Origin: Candidatus Lutacidiplasma silvani
GTDB lineage: Archaea; Thermoplasmatota; Thermoplasmata; Lutacidiplasmatales; UBA184
Length of the DNA: 64,000 nucleotides
NCBI GenBank assembly: GCA_022750295.1
Contig: JAKIVZ010000002.1
Span: forward strand, 80,989 to 144,988
Direction: 5' to 3'
Below, in pieces: positions 3,290 through 51,662 of this stretch; the first letter of the stretch is position 1, and each line of letters begins with the position of its first letter. The notes beneath the pieces are model-generated. The model saw only the letters and a list, made by a program, of their open reading frames with translations, searched no databases and was not told the origin of the DNA. The translations under genes were made by a program, and so were the position numbers.

Positions 3290-3395
3290 ACAGAGATCCC
3301 GAGGCGAGATGGGCAACGTCGGACCGGTTCGGGCCCCCGTCGGAGCCCTCCCCGGTGTCGGCCCGGTCCCCGCACGGAGCAGGTGGGTGTGACGC

Positions 3396-4226: not shown

Positions 4227-4232
4227 ACTAAG

Positions 4233-4628
4233 ATGGCTCTGTTCTCCGACATCGACTGGGGGATCCTCCTCGCCGTCGCCGGGTTCCTCTTTCTCGGCAA
4301 AGAGAGCGGGGCCGCGCTCCGGCAATTCGGCCGGTACTACGGCCGGTTCGTCCGACTGAAGCAGGAGCTCCTCGGCGAGCTCACGCGCGCGGCCGAGCTC
4401 CCCGCGCCCCCGACCGGCGGCGCCCTCTCGTTCCGCGGCGCACTCCTCGGCTACCCCGAGGGGTCTGCCACTCCGGGGATTCCGATCGCGGTGACGTCCG
4501 CTCCGTTGGCCGTGGCGGCGCTGGCCGCCGTGGCGAGCCCCGCCCCTGCGATCCCGAGTGGGATCGGTCCGGACCGCTGGTCCGTGGCGCTCCCCTCCGC
4601 CGCGCTGGAGGCGCCGTTCGTCCGATGA
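4233..4628 (+). CDS. second TatA/TatB-like protein with an Ala/Pro-rich C-terminal tail
   Basis: MALFSDIDWGILLAVAGFLFLGKESGAALRQFGRYYGRF has TatA/B architecture. Its stop overlaps the next start (ATGA). Confidence 0.55.
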   Translation: MALFSDIDWGILLAVAGFLFLGKESGAALRQFGRYYGRFVRLKQELLGELTRAAELPAPPTGGALSFRGALLGYPEGSATPGIPIAVTSAPLAVAALAAVASPAPAIPSGIGPDRWSVALPSAALEAPFVR

Positions 4629-4810
4629 CCGCCCTCTCCCTCGACGACCAGGTGACGATGGTCGAGATGTTCCTGATTCTCGTCGGGATCGGGATCACCT
4701 GGGCCGTCTACTACGGCAGCGACCGGGCGGAACTGCCGGGCGACGCGACGACCCCCGCGCCGGGCCACGCGGATGACATGGAGATCGATGCCCGCGGGAG
4801 GACCCTCTGA
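4625..4810 (+). CDS. small single-TM membrane protein (61 aa), translationally coupled between tatA2 and the Rieske gene
   Basis: ATGA overlap with the upstream gene and TGATG overlap with the Rieske start. Hydrophobic helix MVEMFLILVGIGITWAVYY. Confidence 0.4.
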   Translation: MTALSLDDQVTMVEMFLILVGIGITWAVYYGSDRAELPGDATTPAPGHADDMEIDARGRTL

Positions 4811-5626: not shown

Positions 5627-6982
5627 GTGGGATTCGAGCGTTGGTTCAACCGGACCCTCAACCAGGTCTGGGGATTCATTGAGGACCGGACGGGGATGCC
5701 CAAGTGGGCGCTCCGCCCCCAGCCCGAGTTCACCTTCAAGCCGTCGTACTGGACCGGGGCGTTCGTCGTCAATGCATTCCTGTACCAGGTGATCTCGGGG
5801 CTCCTGCTCCTGCTGTATTACCAGCCGAGCGTCAATCCGACGTACACCGCGTGCGGCCAGCCCGTGGGGACCCTCTCGACGTCCCCGGCGGCATGGTGCA
5901 GTACGTACTACATCGTCCATTCGGTTCCGATGGGGTCGCTCCTCCTCTCCACCCACCTCTACGGCTCCTATGCGATGATCTTCCTTGCGATCGTCCATTT
6001 CTTCCGCGGCTACTACCTCGGCGTCTACAAGGCGCCCCGCGAGTTCTCCTGGATGGTCGGCACGCTGCTGATGCTGACGACCCTCGGGATGGGGTTCACC
6101 GGGTACCTCCTCCCGTACACCCAGATCTCGCTCAACGCGACCAACGTCGGCCTCGTCCTGGCCCTCCGGCTGCCGTACGCGGGCCCGTTGATCGGCCCCC
6201 TCCTCCTCTCCGACGGGACCGGCCAAGGATTGCTCTCACGGATGTTCGCCGCCCACGTCGTCCTTTTGCCGCTCGCCTTGGGCGCGCTCCTCTACGCCCA
6301 CATCGCTTTGTTCGAGTCGCACGGGATCGCCCCTCCGGCGACGTCCGACCCGTTGCAGCGGCGGCGGTTCACCGAGGAGGAGGACAAGAAAAACGTCCCG
6401 TTCATGCCCCACATTTTCTTCTACATCACCAAGTGGGCGTTGCTCTACATCGGGCTCCTGATCGGCATCGCGGCCCTCTGGCCGTGGAACCTTCCGACGT
6501 ACGCGGGCGACCTCACGGCGACGGGGATCGTAACCGAGCCCGATTGGTACTTCCTCTGGTTGTTCAAGTTCCTCGACTTCCAGGGGGTCACACCGGTGAT
6601 CGCCATCGGCGTCACGACGGTGATCATCCTGTACGTGTTGTTCCTGCCGTTCCTCGACCGGTCGAAGGCGACGCACCCACGGGACCGCCCGGTGTTCATC
6701 ATCATCGGCACCTCGATGCTCGAGTTCTGGTTCCTGATGACCGTCTGGGGCGGTCTCACACCGGGGGTCGCCATCACTCCCATGGAGGTCGCGCTCCGGA
6801 TCGGCCCGCTCTTCGCGGCGAACGCCGTGGTCGTCGCCCTGTTCCACTGGCGGTACCGCAAGAGCTACCGGGCCCGGATGGCGGCCCGGACCGGCGCGGC
6901 GAGCACCTGCCCCGGCGCCTACCCCAGCTCGTTGGTGGGTGGATCGCGCCCGTCCGTCGCGGAGGCGAGTGCCCGTGACTGA
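5627..6982 (+). CDS. cytochrome b (bc complex, SoxG/SoxC-like; cytochrome b plus subunit-IV-like C-terminal region)
   Basis: Multi-TM protein with conserved cytochrome b His-containing helices (HLYGSYAMIFLAIVHFFRGYY; HVVLLPLALGALLYAHIALF). Confidence 0.85.
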   Translation: MGFERWFNRTLNQVWGFIEDRTGMPKWALRPQPEFTFKPSYWTGAFVVNAFLYQVISGLLLLLYYQPSVNPTYTACGQPVGTLSTSPAAWCSTYYIVHSVPMGSLLLSTHLYGSYAMIFLAIVHFFRGYYLGVYKAPREFSWMVGTLLMLTTLGMGFTGYLLPYTQISLNATNVGLVLALRLPYAGPLIGPLLLSDGTGQGLLSRMFAAHVVLLPLALGALLYAHIALFESHGIAPPATSDPLQRRRFTEEEDKKNVPFMPHIFFYITKWALLYIGLLIGIAALWPWNLPTYAGDLTATGIVTEPDWYFLWLFKFLDFQGVTPVIAIGVTTVIILYVLFLPFLDRSKATHPRDRPVFIIIGTSMLEFWFLMTVWGGLTPGVAITPMEVALRIGPLFAANAVVVALFHWRYRKSYRARMAARTGAASTCPGAYPSSLVGGSRPSVAEASARD

Positions 6983-7241
6983 GACGGAATCCCCGAAGTT
7001 CCGGACCGGGTGGCTCTGGGGAATCCTCGGGATTCTTCTGGCGATCGGCACGGTCGCCGCCGGGTTTGTCGTCTACGGATTGACCCAGCTGCTCGCGACC
7101 GGGAACTGGTGGCTCGACGTCCCCGCGTTCGTCGGCGGGGCGGTCGTCGCCACGTTCGCCATGCTCCTCATCACCGGGATCCTCTACCGCGTCGACCGGC
7201 TGCGCGGGACCCCCCACCGGGAGGTGCGGCTCTTTGAGTGA
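6939..7241 (+). CDS. small two-TM membrane protein (possible supernumerary oxidase subunit)
   Basis: Hydrophobic helices (WLWGILGILLAIGTVAAGFVVYGL; FVGGAVVATFAMLLITGILY). The start is uncertain because it overlaps the cytochrome b 3' end. Confidence 0.35.
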   Translation: MDRARPSRRRVPVTETESPKFRTGWLWGILGILLAIGTVAAGFVVYGLTQLLATGNWWLDVPAFVGGAVVATFAMLLITGILYRVDRLRGTPHREVRLFE

Positions 7242-7632
7242 AGCATCCCCGAGCCCGGATGCGATGGTCGACTACCTTGAAGCCCACCGCTCCCAGGCCG
7301 TCGCCAAGGTCCTCGAGCTCTACAACGCGACGACGGTCCTCCTCCTGCTCGGGATCGCTGGACTGGCCATCTACGCGTTCCGGCTCGGTCCGCTCGTCGG
7401 GCCGGGGGTCGAGGAGTCGTTCGGACTGGCGGCTGGCGCGATGTTCGTCATGGGCGCGCTTCTCGTCCACCTTGTCGACCGGACCTACCGGAGCTGGCCC
7501 CTCGGCCGCAAGTTCCGGCCGGAGGTGCCGCCCGCCGTTTCACCGGCCGGGACGGCGCGGTTGGTCACCTGGCTGATCGTCCTCGCGGCGGCCGCCGGGA
7601 TTGTCTACGTCGTCGCCCAGCTGATCATGTGA
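7234..7632 (+). CDS. small multi-TM membrane protein (possible SoxI-like accessory subunit)
   Basis: Three hydrophobic helices, no recognisable domain, located between the cytochrome b and coxA genes. Confidence 0.4.
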
Positions 7633-7648
7633 AGGGGGAACCGAACCG

Positions 7649-9352
7649 ATGACTGATCTGGTAACGCCCGGCATCGAAATCGCCATGATCGTGGCGCTCG
7701 CAGCGTTCGGGCTCTACCTCACGCGCTACCACGGCGAGTGGTTCGTCAAGAAGGCGTCGCTGTACCTCTTCACCACCGATCACAAGCGCATCGGATTGAT
7801 GTACATCACCACGGGTATGGTGTTCTTCTTCATCGGCGGGATCTACGCGATCCTGATCCGGACCGACCTCGGCTTCGTGCAGGGACTCGGTCTCGACCCG
7901 CAGACGACCCTCGGAATCACCCCGGACGTCTACTCGACCCTGTTCACGATGCACGGGGTTCTGATGATCTTCATGTTCATCATGCCCGTCCTGGCCGGGT
8001 TCGGCAACTACCTCGTCCCGTCGATGATCGGGGCGAAGGAGATGGCGCTCCCCCGGATCAACGCGATCGCGTTCTGGATGCTCCCGCCCGCGGGCGTGAT
8101 CCTGATCCTGTCGAACGCGTACGCGGGTTGGACCGGCTACGTCCCCCTCTCCATCGAGGCGTACGGGCCGAACCCCCACGGGGTCGACCTCTGGATCCTC
8201 GGACTCCACATCCTCTCGGCTTCGTCGATGCTGGGCGCGATCAACTTCCTCGTCACCATCGTCAAGCACCGGGCCCCCGGCGTCCACTACTGGAACATGC
8301 CCCTCTTCGTCTGGGCGACGCTGATCAACTCGGTCCTCCTGATCTTCGCCCTCCCGTCGCTGTCGATCGCGCTCACGATGGTCCTTTCCGACCGGAACTT
8401 CGGGACGCACATCCTCGCGGCCGCGAACGGCACGCCGCTCGGCGGCGCGCTCCTCTATCAGAATATGTTCTGGTTCTTCGCCCATCCCGAAGTCTACGTG
8501 ATGGTGTTACCGGCCTTTGGTATCATCTCCACGGTCATTCCCAAACTCGCGCGGAAGGACATCTTCGGGTACGGCGCCATGGCGATCTCGCTCGGCGTGT
8601 TCGCCGTCCTTTCGTTCGCCGTCTGGGAGCACCACATGTTCGTCACGGGGCTCCCCCCGGACGTCCAGTTCGTCTTCATGCTCTCGACGATGGCGATCGC
8701 GGTCCCCTCCGCCGTCAAGACGTTCAACTGGGTCGCGACCCTCTGGGGCGGCAAAATCTGGATGGCGGTCCCGATGTGGTTCTCGGTGGCGTTCATCACC
8801 GGGTTCGTGATCGGCGGCCTCTCGGGCCTCATGTTGGCCGCGATCCCGGTCGATTACCTCTATCACGCGACGTACTTCGTCGTCGCGCACTTCCACTACA
8901 TCCTGCTCGGCGGGACGCTGATGGGGATCTTCGCGGGGATCTACTTCTACTACCCGATCTGGACCAAGCGCTGGTATTCCCAGCGGCTCGGCCACGTCCA
9001 CTTCCTCCTCACGTACATCGGCGTGAACCTCCTGCTGTTCCCGATGTTCCTCCTCGGCGCCGAGGGGATGCCCCGGCGGGTCTACACCTACCTTCCGACG
9101 CTGAACTTCCAGGAGCTGAACTTCCTCGCGAGCGTCGGCGCGATGATCCTCGGGGTCGGCCAGTTGGTCTTCGCGTTCAACATGGTCTACAGCTACTTCG
9201 CCGGCCAGAAGGTCACGACCGACGACCCGTGGGACGAGCCGGCCCCCACGCGGATGATCGGCGGGACCCCCGCGCCCGCGCCGGCCCCGCTCCCCTCGTC
9301 CCACCGGACGCCGCTCCCGACGACGGCGCCGTCGATCGAGCCGACCCCGTAG
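7649..9352 (+). CDS. coxA: heme-copper oxidase subunit I
   Basis: 567 aa, 12+ TM. Conserved CoxI regions include WFFGHPEVY (here [17 protein letters not shown]) and the HH metal ligands (HFHYILLGG). Confidence 0.9.
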
Positions 9353-9373
9353 CGCCGACTAGGAACGCAACCA

Positions 9374-9949
9374 ATGCAGAGGCACACCATCTTCCGGCTC
9401 CTCGCGATCGCCGCGTTCGCCTCGACGTACGTGACGATCATCCTCGGAGGGAACGTCATCGCCACCGGGTCTGGCCTCGCCTGCCCGGACTGGCCGTCGT
9501 GCCACGGCAACTTCCTCCCCCCGCTCAGCGGCCAGACCGCGATCGAGTGGGGACACCGGGTGAGCGCGTTCGTGACCGGCGCTCTCGTCGCTTCGATGAC
9601 GCTCGTCGGCCTCGCCTCCGAGCGGCGCCGACCCGTCCTCCGGGGCCTCTCGGTCTGCGCGTCGCTCCTGGTCCTCGCCGAGGCGATGCTCGGAGGGCTG
9701 GTCGTCGACACCCGGCTCGTGGTCGGGGTCGTCCTGTTCCACTTCCTCCTCGCGACGGTCCTGTTCGGCCTCCTCCTCCTGATCGCCTTCTTGGCGAACG
9801 TCCGCGACATCCCGAAGAAGTGGGCGTCGTGGGCCGAACGGGCGATGGTCGAAGAGAAGCCGAGCGAGACGCTCGCCCGGCTCGATCGTCGGGCCATCCC
9901 GGGTCCCGGCCCGGCCCCGGGACCCTCTCGCGGCGCCGACGGCCGCTGA
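9374..9949 (+). CDS. ctaA: heme A synthase, short archaeal type
   Basis: CPDWPSCHG cysteine loop and conserved His residues in TM helices; about 190 aa, four helices. Confidence 0.7.
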   Translation: MQRHTIFRLLAIAAFASTYVTIILGGNVIATGSGLACPDWPSCHGNFLPPLSGQTAIEWGHRVSAFVTGALVASMTLVGLASERRRPVLRGLSVCASLLVLAEAMLGGLVVDTRLVVGVVLFHFLLATVLFGLLLLIAFLANVRDIPKKWASWAERAMVEEKPSETLARLDRRAIPGPGPAPGPSRGADGR

Positions 9950-9979
9950 CCGGCCCCTCGGTCGGGATCGGAGAGGAAG

Positions 9980-10903
9980 ATGAGCGAGTCACCGGCCCCC
10001 GCGACGCCGGCCCCGACCCCGTCCCGCTGGCGGGACGTGGTGACCCTCACGAAGCCGGGGATCACGGCTCTGATCGTCCTCGTCGCCGTCGCCGGGTACT
10101 TCCTCGCCCTTCCGTCCCCCGTGAACTTCGGCCGACTCGGCCTCCTCGCGCTCACGGGCGGTCTCGCCTCCGCGGGCTCGGCGATGCTGAACCACTACCT
10201 CGACCGGGACGTCGATGGCGGAATGAAGCGGACCCGGAGCCGCCCGCTCCCGGGGTCCCGGATCCAGCAGAGCGGGGGCGTCCTCGTCGCCGGCACGGCT
10301 CTCGTGGCGTTGGGGGTGGGGGGAGCGTTCCTCTGGCTCAACCCGCTGACGGCCGTTTCGATCGCGCTCGGCGCACTCACGTACGTCGTGGTCTACACGG
10401 TCGTCCTCAAACGGCGGACGAACTGGAACATCGTCATCGGCGGGTTCGCGGGCAGCGCTCCGGCGCTCGCGGGCGGGGCAGCCGCGGTCGGGAGCTGGAC
10501 CGTCCCTGTCCTCGCGTTCGCGCTCCTCGTCTTCCTCTGGACGCCTCCCCACTTCTGGAGCCTCGCGCTGCTCCTGCGGGAGGACTACCGGCGGGTCGGG
10601 CTTCCGATGTTGCCAAGGATGGACGACCCGGCGTACTCGGGCCGCATCGTCGTCGTCTCGGCCGCCCTCCTCGTCCCCGCCTCGATCCTTCTCGTCCTTG
10701 TGGCCCCGTTCGCCTGGCCGGCGGCCGTCCTCGTCCTCCTCGCCGTGGTCGCGTACTTCGCGCTCGCGCTCCCCCTCTGGCGGCGGGTCGACCGACCGGT
10801 GGCATTGCGGGCGTTCATCGGTTCGGGGCCGTACCTCCTCGCCATCATCGCGGTCCTGATCGTCAACTTCTGGCTCCACGCGATCGGCGTCGCCTCTCTT
10901 TGA
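9980..10903 (+). CDS. ctaB: protoheme IX farnesyltransferase (heme O synthase), UbiA family
   Basis: UbiA-family motifs NHYLDRDVD and DRDxD-like; multi-TM, about 300 aa. Confidence 0.85.
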   Translation: MSESPAPATPAPTPSRWRDVVTLTKPGITALIVLVAVAGYFLALPSPVNFGRLGLLALTGGLASAGSAMLNHYLDRDVDGGMKRTRSRPLPGSRIQQSGGVLVAGTALVALGVGGAFLWLNPLTAVSIALGALTYVVVYTVVLKRRTNWNIVIGGFAGSAPALAGGAAAVGSWTVPVLAFALLVFLWTPPHFWSLALLLREDYRRVGLPMLPRMDDPAYSGRIVVVSAALLVPASILLVLVAPFAWPAAVLVLLAVVAYFALALPLWRRVDRPVALRAFIGSGPYLLAIIAVLIVNFWLHAIGVASL

Positions 10904-11913: not shown

Positions 11914-11974
11914 CGAAGTTCTGCTCGGAACCATTATCTCCCGGCCGAGGGTCGGCGCCGCCGTCGCCCGGAAT

Positions 11975-12049
11975 GGGGCCGTGGGGTAGCTTGGTCCATC
12001 CTTCTTGCTTGGGGTGCAAGAGACTCCGATTCAAATTCGGACGGCCCCA
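11975..12049 (+). tRNA. tRNA-Pro (anticodon GGG)
   Basis: 7-bp acceptor stem GGGGCCG/CGGCCCC. Anticodon stem CTTGC/GCAAG with loop TTGGGGT (anticodon GGG at 12011-12013). T-stem TCCGA/TCGGA with loop TTCAAAT. 75 nt, no encoded CCA. The D-arm spacing is slightly non-canonical by hand folding. Confidence 0.6.
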
Positions 12050-12107
12050 TCCGGGCACCCGGGCGGTCGGGTTCGTGCGATGCTAGACCGCGTCGGATGA
12101 GGTCGCG

Positions 12108-15685: not shown

Positions 15686-16018
15686 CTACAGGAGCTTGCG
15701 GAACAGGAGCTTGTCCTCAAGACTGCCGTCGATGGCCAGCCGTCGGGTGACGAGCGCCTTCATCGGGCCGATGTCCTTCGCGATCAATCCGAGCAGCGTC
15801 GCCCGGTCGGTCGTGATCGTGAGGTCCGCCTTCCCGGTCCCGTCGCTGCGGAGGTTCTCCAGATGGCCCTCCCGGAGGTCGACCGCGTACGTCCCCTCGT
15901 CGGTGACGCGAATCCGGATGGTGCGGGCGAGGCCCCCGAGTTCGGCGCGGATCGCGGGGTTCTTCTCCGCGTGCCGGTTGAACCGGTCCACGACGCCGGC
16001 GAGGTTCTCCTCGATCAT
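15686..16018 (-). CDS. SCP2 (sterol carrier protein 2)-like lipid-binding domain protein
   Basis: 110 aa; the overall pattern and C-terminal LAIDGSLEDKLLFRKLL are typical of SCP2 domains. Confidence 0.6.
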   Translation of the reverse strand: MIEENLAGVVDRFNRHAEKNPAIRAELGGLARTIRIRVTDEGTYAVDLREGHLENLRSDGTGKADLTITTDRATLLGLIAKDIGPMKALVTRRLAIDGSLEDKLLFRKLL

Positions 16019-16713
16019 CGCCCGAACGCCTCGAGGGCGCGAGCCGGTCGGCGGGGATTAATCCTTTCCATCGTGGCCCACGACGTACGGAGCCACGCCG
16101 GCGGGGACGTTCCGTCGGCGAGGACTGCCCGCACGAACTCCACCGTTTCGCGGTCCGAGGGGTACCCGCTCCCGAGCCCCTCGCCAACCTGGCTCCGCAG
16201 TTCCTCGAGGGCTCGGTCGCGGTGGACCTTCGCGACGATCGACGCCGCTCCGACCACGAGGAGGTCCCGGTCCGCCTTGTGCCGGGCATGGACCTCGGCC
16301 GAGGTCCCCGACGCGGTCCGAAGCCGTCGACCGAACCGCTCGGCGACCGGGTCGCAGGCGTCCGCGTAGGCGATGTCGGGCCGGGTCTGGCGGACGAGCC
16401 GGGCGAATGCGGTGAGTTCGAGTTCGTTCAACCGTCCCCGCGCGACGGCCCGGTCGATCGCGCCCGGGCCGAGCCGGATCGCGAGCGGTGTGCCGATCGT
16501 CGGGAGCGCCTCGAAGATTGCCTCGCGGCGGGAGGGCGTGAGCCGCTTCGAGTCGCGGACCCCGAGCTCGCCGAGCTCCGGGATCCGTGCCGCCTCGAGG
16601 AGGAACCCACCGACGACGAGCGGTCCGACGAGACTCCCCCGACCGGCCTCGTCGATCCCGAGGACCTGCCCGTACGGCGCCGGAGCCGGGCCGGGCCCCC
16701 GGGGGACGACCAT
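16015..16713 (-). CDS. rnhB: ribonuclease HII
   Basis: GIDEAGRGSLVGPLVV and DSK motifs. Start assigned to the internal ATG (MVVPRG); the remaining 5' part of the 589-aa ORF is low-complexity and was rejected. Confidence 0.85.
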   Translation of the reverse strand: MVVPRGPGPAPAPYGQVLGIDEAGRGSLVGPLVVGGFLLEAARIPELGELGVRDSKRLTPSRREAIFEALPTIGTPLAIRLGPGAIDRAVARGRLNELELTAFARLVRQTRPDIAYADACDPVAERFGRRLRTASGTSAEVHARHKADRDLLVVGAASIVAKVHRDRALEELRSQVGEGLGSGYPSDRETVEFVRAVLADGTSPPAWLRTSWATMERINPRRPARALEAFGR

Positions 16714-16767
16714 CGGAAGGCCCCGATGGCGCGAACCCCATAAGGCGAGACCTCCTCCACCGTCGAC

Positions 16768-17658
16768 ATGCTCCACGGCCTCGCGGTTCCCGTCCCCACC
16801 GTGTTCGACCCGGACGGGGCGATCGATCCGGGGGCGAGCGGGGCGTTCGTCCGCACGATCGCGAGCGCGGGGGCCGACCACATCCTGCTCCTCGGGGCCC
16901 TCGGGGAATCCGCGCTCGTCGAGGACGCCGAGCGACGAATCCTCCTCGAGTCGACCCTCGAAAGCCTCCCGGCGAAGTCCGACGCCTGGGTCGGCGTCGG
17001 GGCTCCGGGGACGCGCCGGTCGGTCCGGTTGGCGTTGGCCGCGGAGGAGGCCGGTGCGGCCGCCCTCATCGCGGCCCCGCCGTACGGACTCCGCCTCACG
17101 ACCGACGCCCTCGCGCACTACTACCAGGCGATCCGGGAGGCGACGAAGATCCCGATCGTCGTCGAGAACGCCCCGGCGCTCGCCGGCTCCACCCTGACCC
17201 CGGAGCTCGTGCACCGATTGGCGCGGGAGCGGGTCATTGACGGGATCACCGACGGTTCGGGGTTCCTCGAGAGCGTGGCCGGCTTCCTTCGGGGCGCTCC
17301 AGAAGGGTTCGCCGTATTTTCCGGCGAGGATGCCCTGGCGCTCGCGGCCGTGGAGAAGGGGGCGGCGGGCGCGGCGCTCCCGTCCGCGAACGTCGTTCCC
17401 AAGCTGGGGGTCGCGCTCGTCCGCGCCGCCCGAGCGCACGAGACGGCCCGCGCGAACGAGCTGCAGGTGCTCGTCACCCGGGTCGGCGAGGCGATCCGGT
17501 CCGGGCCGTTCCCGGCGACCGTGAAGTTCTTGGCCGGCCAAGCGTGGGGCGCCCGCGTAGGATACCGCTCGCCCGGAGAGCCGCTCACGCCCGAGGAGGA
17601 GAGAACGGTGCTCGGAACGTTCGAGCCGCTCCGGCCCGTTCTGCGCCCGTTCCTCTGA
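16768..17658 (+). CDS. DapA/N-acetylneuraminate-lyase-family protein; the Schiff-base Lys appears substituted
   Basis: GALGES (GTTGE-like) and PPY motifs and the TIM-barrel family pattern. The segment aligning to the G-I-K-E-A-S-G lysine strand reads GITDGSG. Confidence 0.6.
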   Translation: MLHGLAVPVPTVFDPDGAIDPGASGAFVRTIASAGADHILLLGALGESALVEDAERRILLESTLESLPAKSDAWVGVGAPGTRRSVRLALAAEEAGAAALIAAPPYGLRLTTDALAHYYQAIREATKIPIVVENAPALAGSTLTPELVHRLARERVIDGITDGSGFLESVAGFLRGAPEGFAVFSGEDALALAAVEKGAAGAALPSANVVPKLGVALVRAARAHETARANELQVLVTRVGEAIRSGPFPATVKFLAGQAWGARVGYRSPGEPLTPEEERTVLGTFEPLRPVLRPFL

Positions 17659-17771
17659 TCCGACTCGGGGTTCGCGAGGGGCTCCGGGGCCCCGGGCGGT
17701 CGCGTCCGGGCCGCCGAGGAATCCGATCGCTCCGTTCCGAGCGCGGGGGCGGAGCCTCCTCTCACGAAACG

Positions 17772-17778
17772 TCAAATA
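17772..17778 (+). promoter_or_regulatory. weak TATA-like element (TCAAATA) about 36 nt upstream of the rps8e ATG
   Basis: The only AT-rich stretch in a GC-rich intergenic region. Spacing is similar to the TATA boxes upstream of rps12 and acd. Confidence 0.25.
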
Positions 17779-17813
17779 CGGCACCCCGCTCGCTCGACCT
17801 CCCTCGAGGGCCC

Positions 17814-18212
17814 ATGGGTATCTGGCAAGGTCGGTCGCGCCGCAAGCGGACGGGAGGACGGCTCCGGCCGATCCGCAAGAAGCGGCGGTTCGAGATCGGA
17901 CGCGAACTCCAGCAGGCGACCCTCGGCGCGGGGACCGTGAAGCGGTACCGCGTGCGCGGGGCCAACGAGAAGATCCGGATCCTCACCGTCAGCACCGCGA
18001 ACGTCTACGACCCGTCGACGAAGAAGTCGAAGGTCGTGAAGATCGTCACCGTCCGGGAGAACCCGGCGAACCCGAACTACGTGCAGCGGAACATCATCAC
18101 CCGCGGCGCCATCCTCGAGACCGAGCTGGGCCTCGTCCGGGTCCGCTCGCGCCCCGGCCAGGACGGCGTCGTCAACGCCGTGCGGATCGCCGAGAGCGCG
18201 GCCGCCGCGTAA
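17814..18212 (+). CDS. rps8e: 30S ribosomal protein S8e
   Basis: MGIWQGRSRRKRTGG N-terminus is typical of S8e. Start assigned to the internal ATG of the longer ORF. Confidence 0.85.
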   Translation: MGIWQGRSRRKRTGGRLRPIRKKRRFEIGRELQQATLGAGTVKRYRVRGANEKIRILTVSTANVYDPSTKKSKVVKIVTVRENPANPNYVQRNIITRGAILETELGLVRVRSRPGQDGVVNAVRIAESAAAA

Positions 18213-22478: not shown

Positions 22479-24641
22479 GTGGGCGGGCGGAACGTGGCGT
22501 CGCTCGACGAATTGTTCCGTCCCCGTTCGGTCGCGGTGATCGGAGCCTCCAACCGGCCCGGCGCGGTCGGCACTTCGCTGTTCCGCAACGTGCTCTCCGC
22601 CGGGTTCCAGGGCGTCGTCTATCCGGTGAACCCGAAATGGCCGAGCGTGAGCGGCGTCCAATGCTACCGGTCGGTGCGCGAGCTCCCCGAGACGCCGGAC
22701 CTCGCCGTGGTGATCGTGCCGGCCCCCGATGTCCGGGTCGTGGTGGAGTCGCTGGGCCGCGCCGGGACCCGGGGGGCGATCGTGATCTCCGCGGGGTTCC
22801 GCGAGGTCGGCGGCGCCGGAGTGGCCCGGGAAGCCGCGCTCGTCGCCACCGCCCGCCGGCACGGAATGTCGCTCGTCGGCCCGAATTGCTTTGGCGTGCT
22901 CAACACCGACCCGTCGGTCGCCCTGAACGCCACGTTCTCGGAGACGCTGCCGCCGCGCGGGAACATCGCCTTCGTCAGCCAGAGCGGGGCGCTCTGTGCG
23001 GGGATCCTGCGCTATGGCATTGCCGAGCGAATTGGATTCTCCCGATTCGTCTCGATCGGGAACCGGGCGGGGATCGACGAGAACGACCTCCTGCGTTCGC
23101 TCGCCGACGACCCCGCGACCGCCGTGGTCCTCCTGTACGTCGAGAACCTCGCCGACGGCCGGCGATTCCTCGAGACGGCGCGGGAGGTCACCGAGAAGAA
23201 ACCGGTCATCGTGATCAAGAGTGGACGCTCCGTCGCGGGCGAGCGGGCCGCCCGCAGTCACACCGGTTCCCTTGCGAACTCCGGGCAGGACCGGCTCTTT
23301 GACGCGTTGTTTGAGCAGTCCGGGGTCCTGCGGGTCGACTCGATCGGCGAGCTGTTCCGGGCGGCGAAAGTCCATGCGGCCGGTCTCGCGCTGAGCGGGC
23401 CCCGATTGGCGATCCTCACGAACTCGGGGGGACCCGGGATCGTGGCGGCCGATGCGTGCGCCCGGGTCGGCCTCGAGCTTCCCGTCCCCCCGGAGCGGAC
23501 CGTCCGGGCGCTTCGTCGGCGCCTCTCCCCCTCCGCGTCGGTGGGGAACCCGGTCGACATGACCGCCGACGCCCACGCCGAACAGTATTCGGGCGCCCTC
23601 GCCGACCTTCTCGCCGCCCCCACGACCGATGGGGCGCTCGTGATCGCCACTCCGACCGGCACCCTGAGCGGCGACGTCGTCTCCCGGGCGATCCTGAAGG
23701 GCCGGGGGACGAGCCCGAAGCCGGTCGTCGCCTGCCTGTTCGGGCTCACCGACCTCACCCACGAGGTCGGGATCCTGGAGGAGCACGGCGTTCCGACGTT
23801 CACCTTCCCCGAGGAGGCGGTCGCCGGGCTGGGGACGCTCGCCAAGTACCACGCCTGGAAGATCCGGCCCAGGACCCGGGTTCGCTCGTTCCCCGTCGAC
23901 CGACCGGCCGCCCGAGCCGCGATCGCCGCGGCCCGGCGCTCCCGGTCCTCCGTCCTTCCCGAGTACGCCGCCCGGGCCCTGCTGACCGCTTACGGGATTC
24001 CGTTCGCCCCGTCCCGAGCGGTCGACGGCCTCGAGGAGGCGGTCGAGGCGGCGGCCGAGATCCGCTACCCCGTGGTCCTCAAGGTCGCCTCGCCCGACAT
24101 CTCGCACAAGACCGACGTCGGAGGCGTCGCCGCCAATCTCCCGGACGAGGGCGCGCTCCGGTCGGCGTGGGCGACGATGCGGTCGGAGCTCGCGCGACGG
24201 GCGAGCGGCGCACGGATCGATGGGTTCGAGATCGAATCGATGATCCGGGGCGGCCACGAGGTGATCGTCGGGGCCCAGCGGGATCCGGGGTTCGGGCCGG
24301 TGGTCCTGTTCGGGATGGGAGGGATCTACGTCGAGGTGCTCCGCGACGTGACGTTCCGTCTGGCCCCCCTCCGCTCGCTTTCGGCGGTCCACATGGTCGG
24401 GGCCGTCCGCTCGGCCGCGATCCTGAACGGGGTCCGGGGGGAAGGGCCGGCCGACCTCGCCGCCCTCTACGATGCGATCGAGCGGGTCAGCCAGCTCGTG
24501 GTGGAGGTGCCCGAGGTCGCGGAGCTCGACCTGAATCCCCTGATCGTCCGGCCGGCCGGGCAGGGCGTCGTGGCCGTCGACGCGCGGGTCGTGCTCGATC
24601 TGTCTTCCAGATCGCCACGTCGGACTTCACCCGGTCGATGA
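22479..24641 (+). CDS. acd: acetyl-CoA synthetase (ADP-forming), fused alpha-beta (NDP-forming acyl-CoA synthetase)
   Basis: N-terminal CoA-binding domain (SVAVIGASNRPGAVG), succinyl-CoA-synthetase-like flavodoxin domain and a C-terminal ATP-grasp domain; 720 aa. Confidence 0.85.
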   Translation: MGGRNVASLDELFRPRSVAVIGASNRPGAVGTSLFRNVLSAGFQGVVYPVNPKWPSVSGVQCYRSVRELPETPDLAVVIVPAPDVRVVVESLGRAGTRGAIVISAGFREVGGAGVAREAALVATARRHGMSLVGPNCFGVLNTDPSVALNATFSETLPPRGNIAFVSQSGALCAGILRYGIAERIGFSRFVSIGNRAGIDENDLLRSLADDPATAVVLLYVENLADGRRFLETAREVTEKKPVIVIKSGRSVAGERAARSHTGSLANSGQDRLFDALFEQSGVLRVDSIGELFRAAKVHAAGLALSGPRLAILTNSGGPGIVAADACARVGLELPVPPERTVRALRRRLSPSASVGNPVDMTADAHAEQYSGALADLLAAPTTDGALVIATPTGTLSGDVVSRAILKGRGTSPKPVVACLFGLTDLTHEVGILEEHGVPTFTFPEEAVAGLGTLAKYHAWKIRPRTRVRSFPVDRPAARAAIAAARRSRSSVLPEYAARALLTAYGIPFAPSRAVDGLEEAVEAAAEIRYPVVLKVASPDISHKTDVGGVAANLPDEGALRSAWATMRSELARRASGARIDGFEIESMIRGGHEVIVGAQRDPGFGPVVLFGMGGIYVEVLRDVTFRLAPLRSLSAVHMVGAVRSAAILNGVRGEGPADLAALYDAIERVSQLVVEVPEVAELDLNPLIVRPAGQGVVAVDARVVLDLSSRSPRRTSPGR

Positions 24642-24972
24642 GGAACCGGGCGGCCCGGAACGCCTGGTCCCGATGGACGGCCGCGACCCCGACGACGACC
24701 GAGACCTCGCCGACGCGAACGGTCCCGGTCCGGTGCCAAACGACGACCCGCCGGACGCCGGGGGACCGTTCGGCCGTCCGGGCCAATCGTCGGAGCACGG
24801 GGAGCGCCATCCGCTCGTCGGCCTCGTAGAAGAGGGCCCGCACCGCTCCGGCCGCCGATCGGTCCGGCCGAACGCGGCCCGAGAACACCACGACGCCGCC
24901 CGAGTTCGGGTCGGCCAGGAGTCGAATCGCCGCGGCCATGTCGAGGCGCTCGCGGGTCAAGCGGACGACCAC
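24487..24972 (-). CDS. moaE: molybdopterin synthase catalytic subunit
   Basis: MoaE-like core (GGVVVFSGRVR...VAIWKTD) with an Arg/Pro-rich C-terminal tail that overlaps the acd 3' end. Confidence 0.65.
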   Translation of the reverse strand: MVVRLTRERLDMAAAIRLLADPNSGGVVVFSGRVRPDRSAAGAVRALFYEADERMALPVLRRLARTAERSPGVRRVVVWHRTGTVRVGEVSVVVGVAAVHRDQAFRAARFLIDRVKSDVAIWKTDRARPARRRPRRPARPAGRSGDSGRAPRPRAPPPRAG

Positions 24973-24975
24973 CGC

Positions 24976-25260
24976 TCAACCCCCGCTGTACGGCGGATGG
25001 ATGGCGAGTTCCTCTCCGGCCCGCACGCGGCCGCCCGTTCCGTGGACGTAGGCGCCGTTCCGGGCGAACCGGGAGTGTCGGAGGATCGGCGCCAGCGCCG
25101 GCCGCTGCTCCGCCAGCTCGCGCAGCAGGTCCCGAAGGACGACACCCTCCGGTCCGGTCTCCCGCTCGATTCGCGAGGTCCCGGCCGCCTCCCGGGCGGT
25201 CGCGAACAGCCGGATCGCGATCGTTCCGGGCCTCGTTCGACGGACGCTCCGGTCGGCCAT
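24976..25260 (-). CDS. moaD: molybdopterin synthase sulfur-carrier subunit (ends in Gly-Gly)
   Basis: 94 aa with C-terminal ...HPPYSGG; located immediately upstream of moaE. Confidence 0.65.
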   Translation of the reverse strand: MADRSVRRTRPGTIAIRLFATAREAAGTSRIERETGPEGVVLRDLLRELAEQRPALAPILRHSRFARNGAYVHGTGGRVRAGEELAIHPPYSGG

Positions 25261-25327
25261 GGAATCCTCCGCGGCCCCGCTCCGGACGACACCCCGGGGG
25301 GGTCCTGTCGGCGAGGGGAGACAATCG

Positions 25328-25335
25328 CTTAATAG
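25328..25335 (+). promoter_or_regulatory. TATA box (CTTAATAG) placing the transcription start at or next to the korA ATG (leaderless)
   Basis: AT-rich element 24 nt upstream of the korA ATG at 25359. Confidence 0.4.
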
Positions 25336-25358
25336 GCACTCCCTCTCGAAGCGCGTCG

Positions 25359-27113
25359 ATGGGCGAGATTTCCGTCCGGGCCGGCGGCGCTGCCGGCGAC
25401 GGGATCGCGTCCGTGGGCGAGACGCTCGCGCATTCGCTCTCGCGGATGGGGTTGCACGTCTTCGGCCACAACGCCTACCAATCGGTCATCCGGGGGGGCC
25501 ATGTCTGGTTCCAGGCCCGAGCCTCCACCGCGCCCACCCACTCGCAGGGCGATGCGTGTGACATCCTGTACGCCCTGAACAAGGAGACGGCGGACGTCCA
25601 CTTGCCGAGCCTCTCGCGCGGCGGCACCGTGGTCTTCGACCCGGAGAAGTTCGACATCCCCGCGAGCCAGCTTCCGGCGGGCACGAAGGCGTTGCCCGTC
25701 AAGACCCTCGAGATCGCCCGGAAGTTCACCTCCCAATCGATCCTGCAGAATGCGGGCGGCCTCGGGGCCACCGCGTTCCTCGCCGGGATCCCGCTCGACG
25801 TCCTCCAAGCGTCGCTCGCCGACTCGTTCGGGAAGAAGAAGGGCGACGTCGTCGACTGGAACCTCGGGGCGTCCGCGGACGGCTACGCGTTCGCGCAGGC
25901 GAACTCCGCGGCGAACGACCACGCCGTCGCGAAGGCCGGGGAGCCGAAGCTCCTCATGACCGGGAACGCGGCGATCGCCCTCGGGGCCGCCGCCGCCGGC
26001 TGCAAGTTCCTCGCCCAGTATCCGATGACGCCGGCGTCGTCGATCATGCACTGGATGGCGGCCCATTCCCGCGACATCGGGGTGGTCGTCAAGCAGGCCG
26101 AAGACGAGCTCGCGGCGATCAACATGGCGATCGGCGCCTCGTACGGCGGCGTCCGGTCGATGACCGCCACGAGCGGCGGCGGATTCGCCCTGATGGTCGA
26201 GGCGCTCGGCATGGCCGGAATGGCCGAGATCCCCCTCGTCGTGGTCGAATCCCAACGGTCCGGTCCGTCGACGGGGCTTCCGACGAAGACCGAGCAGGGC
26301 GACCTCAACATGATGCTCGGCGCCGGCCAGGGGGAGTTCCCCCGGGCGATCCTCGCCCCGGCGAACGCCGTCGAGGCGTACCGGGCCGCGATCCGGGCGT
26401 TCCAGGTCGCCGAGGAGTGGCAGACCCCCGTCCTCCTCGCGAGCGACCTCCACCTGTCGGAGAACTACATGACGGTCGACCGCTCGGAGATCGACCTCAA
26501 CGTCGAGATCCCCTCGCTCTTCTCGGTCCAGCCGAACGGCCACGATTACAAACGCTACCAGTACACGCCGTCGGGCGTCTCTCCGCGGTCCCTTCCCGGC
26601 CAGGTCGGCCTGCAGTGGATCGCCGGGTCCGACGAGCACGACGAGAAGGGCCACCTGATCTCGGACGTCAAGTCCGGGATCCCCGTCTGGGTCGCCGAAC
26701 GAACGAAGATGATGCAGAAGCGGATGGGCAAGCTCGCCGGCATCGGGCGGTCGACCGAGCCCCCCCGGCTCGAGGGACCCGCCGACGCCCCGCTGACGTT
26801 CGTCGCGTGGGGCTCGACCGTCGGCGCGATCCGGGACGCGATGGTCACGCTCGCCGCGAAGAACGTCGCGACGAACCTACTCCAGATCCGAACCGTCTTC
26901 CCCCTCCACGTCGACGTCCTGGAGGCCGCGATCGACCGGGCGAAGACGACGCTCCTCGTCGAAGCGAACTATTCCGGCCAGCTCGGTCGCCTCATCCGGG
27001 CGGAGACCGGCCGTCACCTCACCAACCGGCTCCTCAAGTACGACGGGGAGCCGTTCTACCCCTACGAGGTCGTAGGGAAGGCCCTGGAGGTCCTTGGACA
27101 TGGCCGGAACTAG
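25359..27113 (+). CDS. korA: 2-oxoacid:ferredoxin oxidoreductase subunit alpha (fused gamma/alpha type)
   Basis: 584 aa; GDGIASVGE N-terminal (gamma-like) region followed by the alpha domain, typical of the two-subunit archaeal OFOR. Confidence 0.85.
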   Translation: MGEISVRAGGAAGDGIASVGETLAHSLSRMGLHVFGHNAYQSVIRGGHVWFQARASTAPTHSQGDACDILYALNKETADVHLPSLSRGGTVVFDPEKFDIPASQLPAGTKALPVKTLEIARKFTSQSILQNAGGLGATAFLAGIPLDVLQASLADSFGKKKGDVVDWNLGASADGYAFAQANSAANDHAVAKAGEPKLLMTGNAAIALGAAAAGCKFLAQYPMTPASSIMHWMAAHSRDIGVVVKQAEDELAAINMAIGASYGGVRSMTATSGGGFALMVEALGMAGMAEIPLVVVESQRSGPSTGLPTKTEQGDLNMMLGAGQGEFPRAILAPANAVEAYRAAIRAFQVAEEWQTPVLLASDLHLSENYMTVDRSEIDLNVEIPSLFSVQPNGHDYKRYQYTPSGVSPRSLPGQVGLQWIAGSDEHDEKGHLISDVKSGIPVWVAERTKMMQKRMGKLAGIGRSTEPPRLEGPADAPLTFVAWGSTVGAIRDAMVTLAAKNVATNLLQIRTVFPLHVDVLEAAIDRAKTTLLVEANYSGQLGRLIRAETGRHLTNRLLKYDGEPFYPYEVVGKALEVLGHGRN

Positions 27114-27999
27114 TGCACCGTCGGTCGCTCCGACGGTCGGGACGCTGCTGCCCCTCATCGGAAAGTCCGACACAAAGCCCACCTGGTGCCCGGGGTGCGG
27201 CGACTTCGGGGTCGTCGCGGCGGTCGAGATGGCCCTCAAGCGGCTGAAGATCCCGAGCCACCAGGTCGTGCTCGTTTCGGGGATCGGCTGCTCGTCGAAC
27301 CTCCCGCACTTCCTCTCGAGCTACGGGTTCCATTCGATCCACGGGCGATCGCTCCCGGTCGCGGAAGGGATCCGGTGGGCGAACCACACCCTCACCGTGA
27401 TCGCCACGGGCGGGGACGGCGATGGGTTCGGGATTGGCGCCGGCCATTTCATCCACACGATGCGGCGGAACGTCGACATGACGTACGTCACGATGGACAA
27501 CCAGATCTACGGACTGACGACCGGCCAGGCGTCGCCGACGTCGATGATGGGCCAGAAGACGAAGTCAACCCCGGCGGGGGTCATCGAGAACCCGATCGAC
27601 CCGATCAGCCTCGCCCTCGCGGCGGGCGCCACCTACATCGCGCGTGCCTTCTCCGGGGACGTCAAGCAGATGGCCGACCTTGTCGCCGGCGGCATCCAGC
27701 ACAAGGGGTTCGCCTTCATCGACGCGATGAGCCCGTGCGTCACCTACAACAAGATCAACACGTTCGACTGGTTCCGCCAGCGCGTCTACAAGCTCGAGAA
27801 CTCGGGCCACGACCCGACCGACATCGTGCAGGCGTGGCAGCGGTCGCTCGAGTGGGGCGACAAGGTCCCGACGGGATTGTTCTACAAGGCCGACAAGCCG
27901 ACGTACGAGGACCTCGAGGAGGTCCTCACCGCCGGCCCGCTCGCGAACCAGCCTGCGGGCCTCAAGGGCCGCGAGAGCCTGCTCGACGAGTTCATCTGA
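27094..27999 (+). CDS. korB: 2-oxoacid:ferredoxin oxidoreductase subunit beta (TPP-binding)
   Basis: WCPGCGDFG and GDG motifs (TGGDGDGFGIG) of the TPP-binding beta subunit. Confidence 0.85.
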   Translation: MDMAGTSAPSVAPTVGTLLPLIGKSDTKPTWCPGCGDFGVVAAVEMALKRLKIPSHQVVLVSGIGCSSNLPHFLSSYGFHSIHGRSLPVAEGIRWANHTLTVIATGGDGDGFGIGAGHFIHTMRRNVDMTYVTMDNQIYGLTTGQASPTSMMGQKTKSTPAGVIENPIDPISLALAAGATYIARAFSGDVKQMADLVAGGIQHKGFAFIDAMSPCVTYNKINTFDWFRQRVYKLENSGHDPTDIVQAWQRSLEWGDKVPTGLFYKADKPTYEDLEEVLTAGPLANQPAGLKGRESLLDEFI

Positions 28000-30055
28000 G
28001 TCCGCCCGACCCCGCCGTCGGGGCCAGGGTCCCCGGCGTGTACTCGAACACGTACGCGTCCCCCGCGTGTTCCACGAGCGCGAATTCGGACGGCTCGGCG
28101 AAGAGCGGGGCCGTCGAGTACGGGGTCCCGAGGACCGAGTTGCGGCCGGTCACGACGATGTACCCGACCCCGAGCGCGAGGAGGTCGGCGTGGCCGTTCG
28201 GTTCGAGGGTGCCGTTCGACAGCTCTCGGTTCAGGTCCCGGTACGTGAGGTTCGGGAAGTCGAACCCGAGGACCACCGGGTAGACGACCCGCACTTGCGG
28301 GGCGTACGCCGGGAGGAACTCCGCCGCGCTCCCCGGCGCCACGAGGACGCGGGCCCCCGCCGGTAACCCCGTGCCGGCCCAGGCGAGCATCGCGAAGTCC
28401 CCCGCGCTGACGTTCCCGAACGAGCGGTAGAGCGTACCGACCGTCCCCGGCATCTCGGTCGCCGTCACCGCCACGCCCGGGACGAAGAGGAGCAGGGCGA
28501 CCGCAATGGCCCACGTCGGCCCCCTGGGGCTCGATCCGGCCGGGAGCGACCACCGGGGTCGCCGGACGGAGTCCGGGATCGTCGGATCGGCGGCCTTCCA
28601 CTCCAGGAGGGCGACGACCGGAACGGCCGCGACCACGACGAAGGCGGTGAACAGCATCTCGGAAAGCTCGGCCCCGTTCGTGAGCGGCGCCAGCGCCGGG
28701 AACGGCCGGACGCCGAGCGAGGCGAGCCATTCGACCAGGAACAGGACCCCCGCGGACGCGATCGCCCCGAACGCCAGTCGACGGACCGGGCCGCGGTCGC
28801 CGGTCGAGTTCGCGAGCACCGCCAGCAGGAGGGCCCCCACGACGAGGAGGCCGGCCAGCTCGAGCCGGAGGACCGGGAACGGCGAGAGCCCCTGGTCGGT
28901 GGCGCCGAACAGCAACGGGTCGACGTACCCGACGATCTGGCTTCCCGTCAGCCCGACGGGCGCCAACGTCCCGACGCCCGGCGCGGAACCGGCAAACCCG
29001 ATGTGGTCTCTTCCCCGCGCCACCGCGGCGAGCGAGGGGGCGATCGGGATCGCGGCGGCTACGAGCGCCACGGCATACCGGGCCAGCCAGGCCCGGGCGT
29101 CGCCGAACCACCGGCCGGCGGCCGCCGCACCCGCGGCGAACGGGAGGGCAAGGAGCCACCAGCCGACCCCCACCGGGTTGAGCGCAGCGGCGTACCCCGC
29201 GAGGAGCCCGAACGCCACCACGTCCCCCCACGGGACGACGGTCGGCTCGACCCAGCTTCGCGAAAGGGCGATGACGAGGAGCGTGAGGGGGAACGCCGCG
29301 ACGAAATCGTAGCTTCCCGAGACCTGCAACCGGGTCCACGTCGCGAGGACCGCGAGGGCGACCGCGAGCACCGCTCCCCCGCGCGGTCCGCCCAACCACC
29401 GGTCGCCGAGTGCATACCCTCCGAGCGGCGCGAGGCCGAAGAACAGCGGCGTGACGAGCAGCGCGGTCCGCGCCGCGGGAAGGCCGAACAGGAGCTGGGC
29501 CGTCCCCATCCATACGGTCGCCCCCTGCGGGTAGGAGACCGACCCGGAGAGACCAAGCCCCGCGAGGTTCGTGGGAACCGAGTGGTGCGCGAGGAGGAGG
29601 GCTGTGTACGTCGCCAGCTGGCTCGCATCGTAGGTGTTCCCCGTCGGGATCCCGACCGCGATCGCGAGTTCGAGAGCTCCGAGGGCCGCGGCCGCGACCA
29701 GCGCGACGCCGGGGCCGATCCCCAGATAGCCTCGGACGGCGCGCACCACCGCGCGGCCGGACTCGGACCGGCCCAACCGGACCACCCGGAACAGCAGGTA
29801 GGCGAGCGCCAGGACGACAAGCGTGGGGAAGGTCGCCGCCGTGAACAACCCGAGCGGGAGCAACGCGACGGCGTACACGGTGCCGCCGCCGAGGTACAGG
29901 TCGAGGACCAGCCGTTCGATCGGGCCGAGCGATCGCCAGGCGGGCACCCACCGGACTACGAACGTCCGCAGCGCGCCCCCCAGGATCGCGGACGCCGCGG
30001 CGAACACCAGCAGCGCGAGCGCCCAGGCGCCGAGGCCGGGCCCGGGAAGGGTCAC
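27992..30055 (-). CDS. large polytopic membrane protein, putative GT-C-fold glycosyltransferase (687 aa, about 14 or more TM plus a C-terminal soluble domain)
   Basis: Highly hydrophobic multi-TM N-terminal two-thirds and a C-terminal non-membrane domain. No WWDYG motif, so AglB/STT3 identity is unsupported. Confidence 0.45.
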   Translation of the reverse strand: MTLPGPGLGAWALALLVFAAASAILGGALRTFVVRWVPAWRSLGPIERLVLDLYLGGGTVYAVALLPLGLFTAATFPTLVVLALAYLLFRVVRLGRSESGRAVVRAVRGYLGIGPGVALVAAAALGALELAIAVGIPTGNTYDASQLATYTALLLAHHSVPTNLAGLGLSGSVSYPQGATVWMGTAQLLFGLPAARTALLVTPLFFGLAPLGGYALGDRWLGGPRGGAVLAVALAVLATWTRLQVSGSYDFVAAFPLTLLVIALSRSWVEPTVVPWGDVVAFGLLAGYAAALNPVGVGWWLLALPFAAGAAAAGRWFGDARAWLARYAVALVAAAIPIAPSLAAVARGRDHIGFAGSAPGVGTLAPVGLTGSQIVGYVDPLLFGATDQGLSPFPVLRLELAGLLVVGALLLAVLANSTGDRGPVRRLAFGAIASAGVLFLVEWLASLGVRPFPALAPLTNGAELSEMLFTAFVVVAAVPVVALLEWKAADPTIPDSVRRPRWSLPAGSSPRGPTWAIAVALLLFVPGVAVTATEMPGTVGTLYRSFGNVSAGDFAMLAWAGTGLPAGARVLVAPGSAAEFLPAYAPQVRVVYPVVLGFDFPNLTYRDLNRELSNGTLEPNGHADLLALGVGYIVVTGRNSVLGTPYSTAPLFAEPSEFALVEHAGDAYVFEYTPGTLAPTAGSGGLR

Positions 30056-51656: not shown

Positions 51657-51662
51657 GGGTCC

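Follow-up and report, generated by a model that had tools for sequence, protein, structure and literature searches.

To our knowledge, all characterised proteins of the DHDPS/NAL family are Schiff-base enzymes, and for this reason automatic annotation labels the gene described here as a synthase ("4-hydroxy-tetrahydrodipicolinate synthase" or "dihydrodipicolinate synthase family protein" in the databases). The gene lies at positions 16768–17658 of a 64,000-nucleotide stretch of contig JAKIVZ010000002.1 from Candidatus Lutacidiplasma silvani (the whole stretch is hereafter called the window). On balance, we take its product to be a catalytically dead class I aldolase homologue, a pseudoenzyme, left over from an eroding catabolic module and kept for a non-catalytic role. 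The closest described system is DapA (E. coli 1dhp; N. meningitidis 3flu), the best match by both sequence and fold (phmmer 2.7e-29, TM-score 0.92–0.93, root mean square deviation (rmsd) 1.7 Å). The active site of E. coli DapA comprises T44, Y106, Y107, Y133, R138, K161, G186 and I203, and mutation of the catalytic triad or of K161 severely impaired the activity of the enzyme (PMC3369909). Six of these eight residues are changed in the window protein. The second-best match was E. coli YagE (2v8z, 3n2x; 1e-27, TM-score 0.93), and the KD(P)G aldolases compared were that of T. tenax (2r91) and 4uxd, deposited as a 2-dehydro-3-deoxy-D-gluconate/2-dehydro-3-deoxy-phosphogluconate aldolase. The gene and its substituted codons, which were verified in the DNA, are listed below, with residues numbered as in E. 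coli DapA.

16768–17658, + strand: candidate pseudo-aldolase open reading frame (ORF) of the DHDPS/NAL family, 296 amino acids plus stop; PF00701
16897–16902, + strand: codons GCC CTC, Ala44-Leu45, for Thr44-Thr45 of DapA (Ser44-Leu45 in the lysine-bearing family)
17086–17088, + strand: codon GGA, Gly107, at the position of the inter-subunit triad residue Tyr107
17164–17166, + strand: codon GAG, Glu133, at the position of the catalytic-triad residue Tyr133
17248–17250, + strand: codon ACC, Thr161, at the position of the Schiff-base K161 of E. coli DapA

The protein was aligned by phmmer to the solved DapA and YagE structures and by MAFFT with E. coli DapA, and the surroundings of the motifs were free of gaps. 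GITDGSG was placed opposite GIKEATG (K161→T), VVENAPALAG opposite ILYNVPSRTG (Y133→E and R138→L), PPYGL opposite TPYYN (Y107→G) and GALGES opposite GTTGES (T44→A and T45→L). An AlphaFold2 (AF2) model made with 41 family sequences (pLDDT 95.5, pTM 0.92) gave an eight-stranded TIM barrel, in which T161 was at the C-terminal end of strand 159–162 and E133 at the end of strand 130–134; Foldseek matched this model to the DapA and YagE crystal structures with TM-scores of 0.92–0.93 and rmsd values of 1.6–1.8 Å over 288–296 columns. The protein is thus homologous to the superfamily over the whole (beta/alpha)8 barrel and the C-terminal helices, with Thr161 in place of the Schiff-base lysine at the end of strand beta6, and with Glu133 and Ala44 in place of the proton-relay residues Tyr133, at the end of beta5, and Thr/Ser44, in the GxxGE loop. 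An earlier note on this DNA had proposed the K161→T and Y133→E substitutions from a by-eye alignment, and both were borne out, the former by HMMER, MAFFT and the AlphaFold model alike and the latter by collinear alignments. A lysine at the catalytic position, which the note had named as the finding that would overturn its claim, did not appear in the hidden Markov model (HMM), family or structural comparisons. The substitution is therefore genuine rather than a misalignment, and the suggestion of a non-canonical or pseudoenzyme member of the family is supported by both sequence and model.

The window protein contains five lysine residues (K70, K127, K195, K212 and K253), and all five are also present in lysine-bearing relatives, indicating that none of them is a compensating newcomer. 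A hidden lysine or a missed indel was ruled out by this full inventory together with the HMM, MAFFT and AF2/Foldseek alignments. Among the orthologues, most keep K161 and Y133, and the clade of the window protein and up to four other lineages lack them. Three further features had gone unseen in the earlier note, namely the usual loss of a neighbouring glucose dehydrogenase (GDH) gene, the recurrence of the event and the continuing purifying selection on the lysine-less proteins.

The ORF has the properties of a genuine gene. PF00701 (DHDPS) covers residues 2–281 of its product (E=2.9e-42), its GC content at third codon positions (GC3) is 0.90, on par with that of the neighbouring genes, and an identical protein from a Thermoplasmata archaeon metagenome-assembled genome (MAG) is present in NCBI. 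A 589-amino-acid antisense ORF (16015–17784, − strand) was considered as a true gene and rejected, as it consists of RNase HII plus a spurious N-terminal extension; the real RNase HII start is near 16713, and the extension covers the entire DHDPS-like gene in antisense. Its GC content of 0.89 at first and 0.75 at third codon positions, in a genome of ~70% GC, marks it as a high-GC shadow frame. Naive gene callers, including one used here, favour this shadow frame over the real DHDPS-like gene. No second paralogue of the family was found by hmmsearch of the six-frame translation of the 64-kb window, and each genome had one family locus in a scan of one genome per GTDB species, so the window copy is a single orthologue rather than a duplicated paralogue. 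The protein thus resembles pseudoenzymes in general, in that the fold is intact, the catalytic residues are lost and purifying selection persists, and it differs from pseudoenzymes that arose as duplicated paralogues.

We then compared the protein and its relatives with the known enzymes. As in DapA, there is a (beta/alpha)8 barrel with a C-terminal helical domain, and G46, E47, N134, P136 and K253 are conserved. Unlike DapA, the window protein lacks K161, Y133, Y107, T44/T45 and the aspartate semialdehyde-binding R138; its lysine-bearing relatives also lack R138 and T45, and their partner is a glucose dehydrogenase rather than DapB. At position 138 the lysine-bearing members have L, H or K, and never the arginine of DapA, and the window protein has Leu138. 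The score of the window protein against TIGR00674 (dapA) was 128.5 bits, below the cut-off of 206.15, and that of lysine-bearing relatives was 138–153 bits. Similarity to YagE is seen in the lysine-bearing relatives, which have a G-x-K-D-T motif and adjoin a GDH homologue, as expected for an Entner–Doudoroff-type route. However, a specific affiliation with YagE or the KD(P)G aldolases was not found, as NF040954 (archaeal KD(P)G aldolase) scored 82.7 bits for the window protein and 103–114 bits for lysine-bearing relatives against a cut-off of 390, and the window protein lacks the Schiff-base lysine of these enzymes. A specific functional affiliation of the lysine-bearing family was rejected more generally, since every NCBIfam match was below its cut-off and the PDB matches (DapA, YagE and KDG aldolases) were undiscriminating. 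Taken together, these scores and structure matches mark the family as a distinct, Thermoplasmata-specific branch of the superfamily which is not DapA. For the nearest relatives outside the family, the sole name from any source was the generic "4-hydroxy-tetrahydrodipicolinate synthase".

A search of 5.8 billion proteins gave 44 relatives at 45–81% identity, all with a source name attributed to Thermoplasmata, beyond which there was an abrupt step down to ordinary bacterial DapA-like proteins (E=1e-23). The scan of GTDB species genomes added 66 loci, 65 of which were titled as Thermoplasmata/Thermoplasmatota MAGs; the remaining one, L025, was deposited only as 'bacterium' (here and below, loci are numbered L and proteins P). 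The Thermoplasmata-specific family comprises ~110 sequences. In an alignment of 108 sequences, S44, L45, F48, Y107, Y133 and K161 were kept by 87 members. The window protein belongs to this family by positional orthology and by its signature blocks, GLxVPxPTLF at the N-terminus and GPFPxxxKFL...GYRxP at the C-terminus.

The surroundings of the gene are conserved, and the features that define them are as follows.

16015–16713, − strand: RNase HII, divergently transcribed conserved left neighbour, which anchors the positional orthology
17659–17813, no strand: 155-nt spacer before S8e, the site of GDH in ~55 related loci by synteny
17814–18212, + strand: ribosomal protein S8e, conserved right neighbour, followed by SRP19 and a GPN-loop GTPase

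The gene order in all loci is AP_endo (AP-endonuclease-2 fold)–SIS–PdaD (pyruvoyl arginine decarboxylase)–SCP2(−)–RNaseHII(−)–X–(GDH)–S8e–SRP19–GPN, where X is the DHDPS-like gene. Almost every lysine-bearing locus has a GDH homologue directly downstream, and in ~55 loci this 362-amino-acid homologue begins a few nucleotides past the DHDPS-like stop codon. Its best PDB matches are the glucose 1-dehydrogenases 2cd9 (Sulfolobus solfataricus, 1e-58), 2b5w (Haloferax mediterranei, 4e-45) and 3wic (Thermoplasma volcanium, 3e-29). An aldose dehydrogenase adjoining a pyruvate-type class I aldolase suggests an Entner–Doudoroff-type sugar-acid module, and the ancestral pair may have provided the first and the C–C-cleaving steps of a non- or semi-phosphorylative route of this type. 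In the window, the GDH gene has been cleanly deleted: S8e starts 155 nt past the DHDPS-like stop, and only chance-level matches to GDH were found in the spacer (17659–17813). GDH was also absent, without remnants, from L071, L002–L004, L075, L076, L061, L056, L157 and L159.

Loss of the dehydrogenase accompanies most, but not all, of the lysine-loss events. L070 and L072 are lysine-less yet keep the GDH gene, and in a lysine-bearing subclade (L020, L026, L035 and L042) the dehydrogenase is lost, with a truncated dehydrogenase in L043; the two genes therefore erode in either order. The GDH of L070 (10900–11985) has CTG at the start position, where 55 of 58 loci have ATG, GTG or TTG, and its next in-frame ATG is at residue 28. 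Its ratio of non-synonymous to synonymous substitution rates (dN/dS) against L001 was 0.33, and other pairs gave 0.06–0.16, so that this GDH may be in early decay. In L080 (Ga0209415_10000224, 3306–4645), which nests among module-bearing relatives, RNase HII abuts S8e with a gap of ~320 nt and both the DHDPS-like and GDH genes are absent; the same arrangement, with a gap of ~125 nt, is present in L083 (179–1313), a 1.4-kb contig too short to place.

Several side observations concern this locus. A motif of approximately GAAACGTCAAATACGGCACC is conserved upstream of S8e in every dehydrogenase-less locus (window 17740–17800 and the spacers of L071, L002, L003, L004 and L061). It is probably the promoter or a 5′ element of S8e, which would imply that S8e is expressed independently of the upstream gene. 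An apparent DHDPS–S8e fusion, P0028 (460 amino acids, PF00701 plus PF01201, on a 112-kb ENA contig), was rejected because its contig is full of frameshifts, several of which also knock the essential S8e out of frame at its N-terminus. In a subclade (L018, L020, L026, L035, L042 and protein P0033), K161, Y133 and Y107 are kept, L45 is changed to T and D188 to P, A164 is also changed to G in most members, and the dehydrogenase is gone in four of the five loci; this subclade may have acquired another specificity or partner instead of losing catalysis.

The residues at the catalytic positions of the lysine-less proteins are given below, as 161/133/107 for the first three lines and as 161/133 for those that follow.

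Window: T/E/G
P0002 = L071: T/E/A
P0003 = L070: T/S/Y
P0004, P0005, P0013, L003, L076, L077 and the partial L005: V/Q
L061 and P0043: Q/E
P0014, P0022 and L002: T/S
P0019–21, L004 and L075: V/A
P0009 = L072: E/S
L056: T161, with Y133 retained
Deep lysine-less sequences, P0055, P0057 (L157), P0058 (L159, L160), P0062 and P0065 (a 223-amino-acid fragment): I, L or V at 161

In a tree of eight concatenated neighbour genes, the window, L070, L061, L003 and L076 formed one clade (clade A, 99% bootstrap), and L002, L004 and L075 formed another (clade B), lying inside the lysine-bearing, GDH-positive L001, L074 and L073 (88–100%); L056 branched away from both. A protein tree built without the active-site columns concurred with the neighbour-gene tree, and in it P0009 grouped with the lysine-bearing P0006, P0010 and P0011. 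A single ancestral loss of the lysine was not supported, as monophyly of the shallow lysine-less proteins had 15% bootstrap without the active-site columns and clade B is nested in lysine-bearing lineages. When 1.84 billion representatives were searched with a profile, the full-length sequences nearest to the core family, but outside it, were mostly lysine-less themselves. These deep sequences are 33–40% identical to the core family and their GxxGE and PPYY motifs are heavily degenerate. P0057 and P0058 occupy the orthologous position between RNase HII and S8e and lack the dehydrogenase gene, P0058 being found on more than 24 contigs. In the neighbour-gene tree, the L157/L159 lineage and the lysine-bearing, GDH-positive L031 and L081 are sister groups. 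Thus the lysine has been lost independently up to five times: in clade A, in clade B, in the deep clade, in L056 and in P0009. Support is good for the separation of clades A and B and weaker for separate origins in the deep clade (75%), L056 (at most 37%) and P0009 (protein tree alone).

To examine selection, dN/dS was calculated for pairs chosen to share the derived lysine-less state, the entire path between them being lysine-less. We relied on NG86, which here overestimates omega, if anything, because YN00 mostly failed (saturation or composition) and maximum likelihood gave partly unstable optima. The window protein and L071, its closest lysine-less relative, gave 0.23 (bootstrap 0.16–0.33), L003–L076 gave 0.21 and L004–L075 gave 0.18. 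Two deep lysine-less pairs, with unsaturated dS of ~0.13, gave 0.22 (0.12–0.38) and 0.18 (0.09–0.38), values similar to those of RNase HII of the same genomes. Lysine-bearing pairs gave 0.06–0.19, and at equal divergence of the neighbour genes the identity was 66–71% for lysine-less pairs compared with a mean of 77% for lysine-bearing pairs. Constraint on the lysine-less proteins is relaxed ~1.5–2-fold, yet far from abolished. The full-length lysine-less copies in short-read assemblies were all 295–298 amino acids long, with a conserved C-terminus and no frameshift, and 54 scaffold positions were common to the lysine-bearing, shallow lysine-less and deep lysine-less forms. The window protein thus has two of the marks of a pseudoenzyme: the catalytic residues are gone from a kept fold, and it is maintained by selection rather than persisting as a pseudogene (dN/dS 0.18–0.23 in five lysine-less pairs, confidence intervals below 0.4).

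Disrupted copies were seen at three loci. An in-frame stop follows just after KDT in L044 (~2740; a lysine-bearing, low-coverage contig), and among Nanopore MAGs there is one frameshift in L061 (~10430, lysine-less) and two in L066 (lysine-bearing). In these cases sequencing error and true pseudogenisation are indistinguishable.

The main rival to a retained pseudoenzyme is a functionless relic, an aldolase gene that has outlived the usefulness of the sugar-acid pathway and still awaits deletion or disruption. Such decay would accommodate the deletion of the GDH partner in many lineages, the absence of both genes from L080 and likewise from the short contig L083, the CTG at the conserved start codon of the L070 GDH, and the drift of active-site positions in proteins that evolve ~1.5–2 times faster; moreover, a 70% GC genome lets long open frames survive by chance, as with the antisense ORF. 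We nevertheless regard it as unlikely, as a decaying gene is hard to reconcile with confidence intervals of dN/dS far below 1 in five independent pairs whose ancestor was already lysine-less, some of them with unsaturated dS. It also leaves unexplained the uniform length and conserved C-terminus of the short-read copies, the 54 scaffold positions held by deep lineages at only 33–40% identity, and the conserved columns that the shallow proteins retain.

These columns were defined as those at least 93% conserved in the 87 lysine-bearing proteins (n=85) and were compared with 12 shallow lysine-less proteins, in which 72 of the 85 were retained and 13 were lost (window positions 24, 40, 43, 107, 133, 135, 139, 161, 163, 185, 187, 205 and 239). 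The catalytic face, taken as the last residues of a barrel strand or the loop after it, contained 11 of the 13 lost columns compared with 22 of the 72 retained (odds ratio 12.5, one-sided Fisher p=3.7e-4). The replacements were mixed, with T, V, Q, E, L or I at position 161 and E, S, Q, A, L or F at 133, and several of them need two nucleotide changes. Even within the clade of the window protein, 161 is T, V or Q, 133 is E, S or Q, and 107 is G, A or Y. No newly fixed, clade-specific conserved residue was found in the lysine-less clades. Judged from the sequences, this is the pattern expected if constraint on the pocket had been lost without a new pocket chemistry being gained.

The same pattern bears on a second rival, in which the protein would be a neofunctionalised enzyme that catalyses a lysine-independent reaction (for example acid/base chemistry via the new Glu133) or binds a new ligand in the old pocket. 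The persistence of purifying selection is consistent with this, as are the acidic residue at 133 in the window protein, L071 and L061 and the pocket-lining E47, N134, D162, D188 and N208, which neither the window protein nor the shallow lysine-less clades have lost. However, the conservation was lost chiefly on the catalytic face, the pocket residues vary even among the closest relatives, nothing is newly fixed and independent lineages converge on no common replacement. As the pocket residues are unconserved among the lysine-less proteins, we disfavour neofunctionalisation and consider it improbable, rather more so than the relic. Finally, an artefact, whether a misalignment hiding a real lysine, as the earlier note had raised, or a sequencing or assembly error in the codon, found no support and is scarcely credible, since the HMM, MAFFT and structure-based alignments agree in register and show neither an indel around beta5/beta6 nor an extra lysine, the identical sequence is in NCBI, and lysine-less relatives come from many independent metagenomes and samples.

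We therefore return to the pseudoenzyme, for which we propose the following history. The ancestor would have been an active aldolase in a two-gene sugar-acid module that paired GDH with cleavage of a 2-keto-3-deoxy sugar acid. In the lineage of the window, the dehydrogenase gene was deleted and constraint was lost specifically on the catalytic face of the barrel, and the present protein is predicted to form no Schiff base and to neither cleave nor form C–C bonds. The folded protein may have been kept for a function that makes no use of the former active site; it might, for example, bind a partner, act as a scaffold or continue a moonlighting role that the active ancestors already had. Somewhat tentatively, one may go further and suppose that a second, non-catalytic function is the real reason for retention at a locus beside translation and RNA-processing genes, with catalysis and GDH as accessories discarded up to five times.

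Several points weigh against this proposal. The dN/dS values and amino acid divergence are ~1.5–2 times those of the lysine-bearing relatives, which fits a partial relaxation. The non-catalytic role is arrived at by exclusion, and the Entner–Doudoroff-type assignment is drawn from gene adjacency and homology. Since the module is absent from L080 and apparently from L083, the protein is dispensable in some relatives. In addition, Soares da Costa and colleagues reportedly observed in 2010 that the K161A and K161R variants of E. coli DHDPS retain a small residual activity, so that loss of the lysine alone is no proof of zero catalysis; the window protein, however, lacks Y133, Y107 and T44 besides K161.

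Elsewhere in the window, ARAGORN identified a 79-nt tRNA-Pro(GGG) at 11974–12052 (+ strand), and a scan of the whole window at the Rfam gathering thresholds gave no match, the tRNA family included. The gene content of 5627–10903, 22479–28000, 40824–43523 and 51375–55601 was read from Pfam matches and from the annotated syntenic locus L070. These regions include cytochrome b, COX1, CtaA and UbiA, indicative of aerobic respiration, as well as an ADP-forming acyl-CoA synthetase, a pyruvate:ferredoxin oxidoreductase and a family B DNA polymerase. Judged from motifs, the window probably also carries an exosome, SBDS and proteasome-alpha superoperon. From this gene content, the organism looks like an aerobic or facultative heterotrophic member of the Thermoplasmata.

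No description of a lysine-less or pseudoenzyme member of the DHDPS/NAL family was found in the literature searched, the coverage of which was incomplete, so that this is absence of evidence only; the proteins described here could be the first naturally recurrent pseudoenzyme lineage in the superfamily. If the proposal is right, they would be an archaeal example, rare of its kind, of a protein that lost catalysis repeatedly and was nevertheless retained. In what amounts to a clean natural experiment, a single orthologous gene displays all stages of erosion, from the intact pair, through loss of the dehydrogenase only, of the lysine only or of both, to complete deletion. Purifying selection acts on the lysine-less scaffold in recent as well as ancient lineages, which points to a non-catalytic role of a TIM-barrel aldolase that has gone unrecognised. 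The current annotation of these genes is misleading, and metabolic reconstructions that follow it could wrongly assign a step of lysine biosynthesis or a sugar-acid aldolase reaction to these soil and peat Thermoplasmata. Of conceptual interest is that catalysis would have died out repeatedly and independently while the scaffold stayed, and the family would offer a tractable system in which to study the origin of prokaryotic pseudoenzymes.

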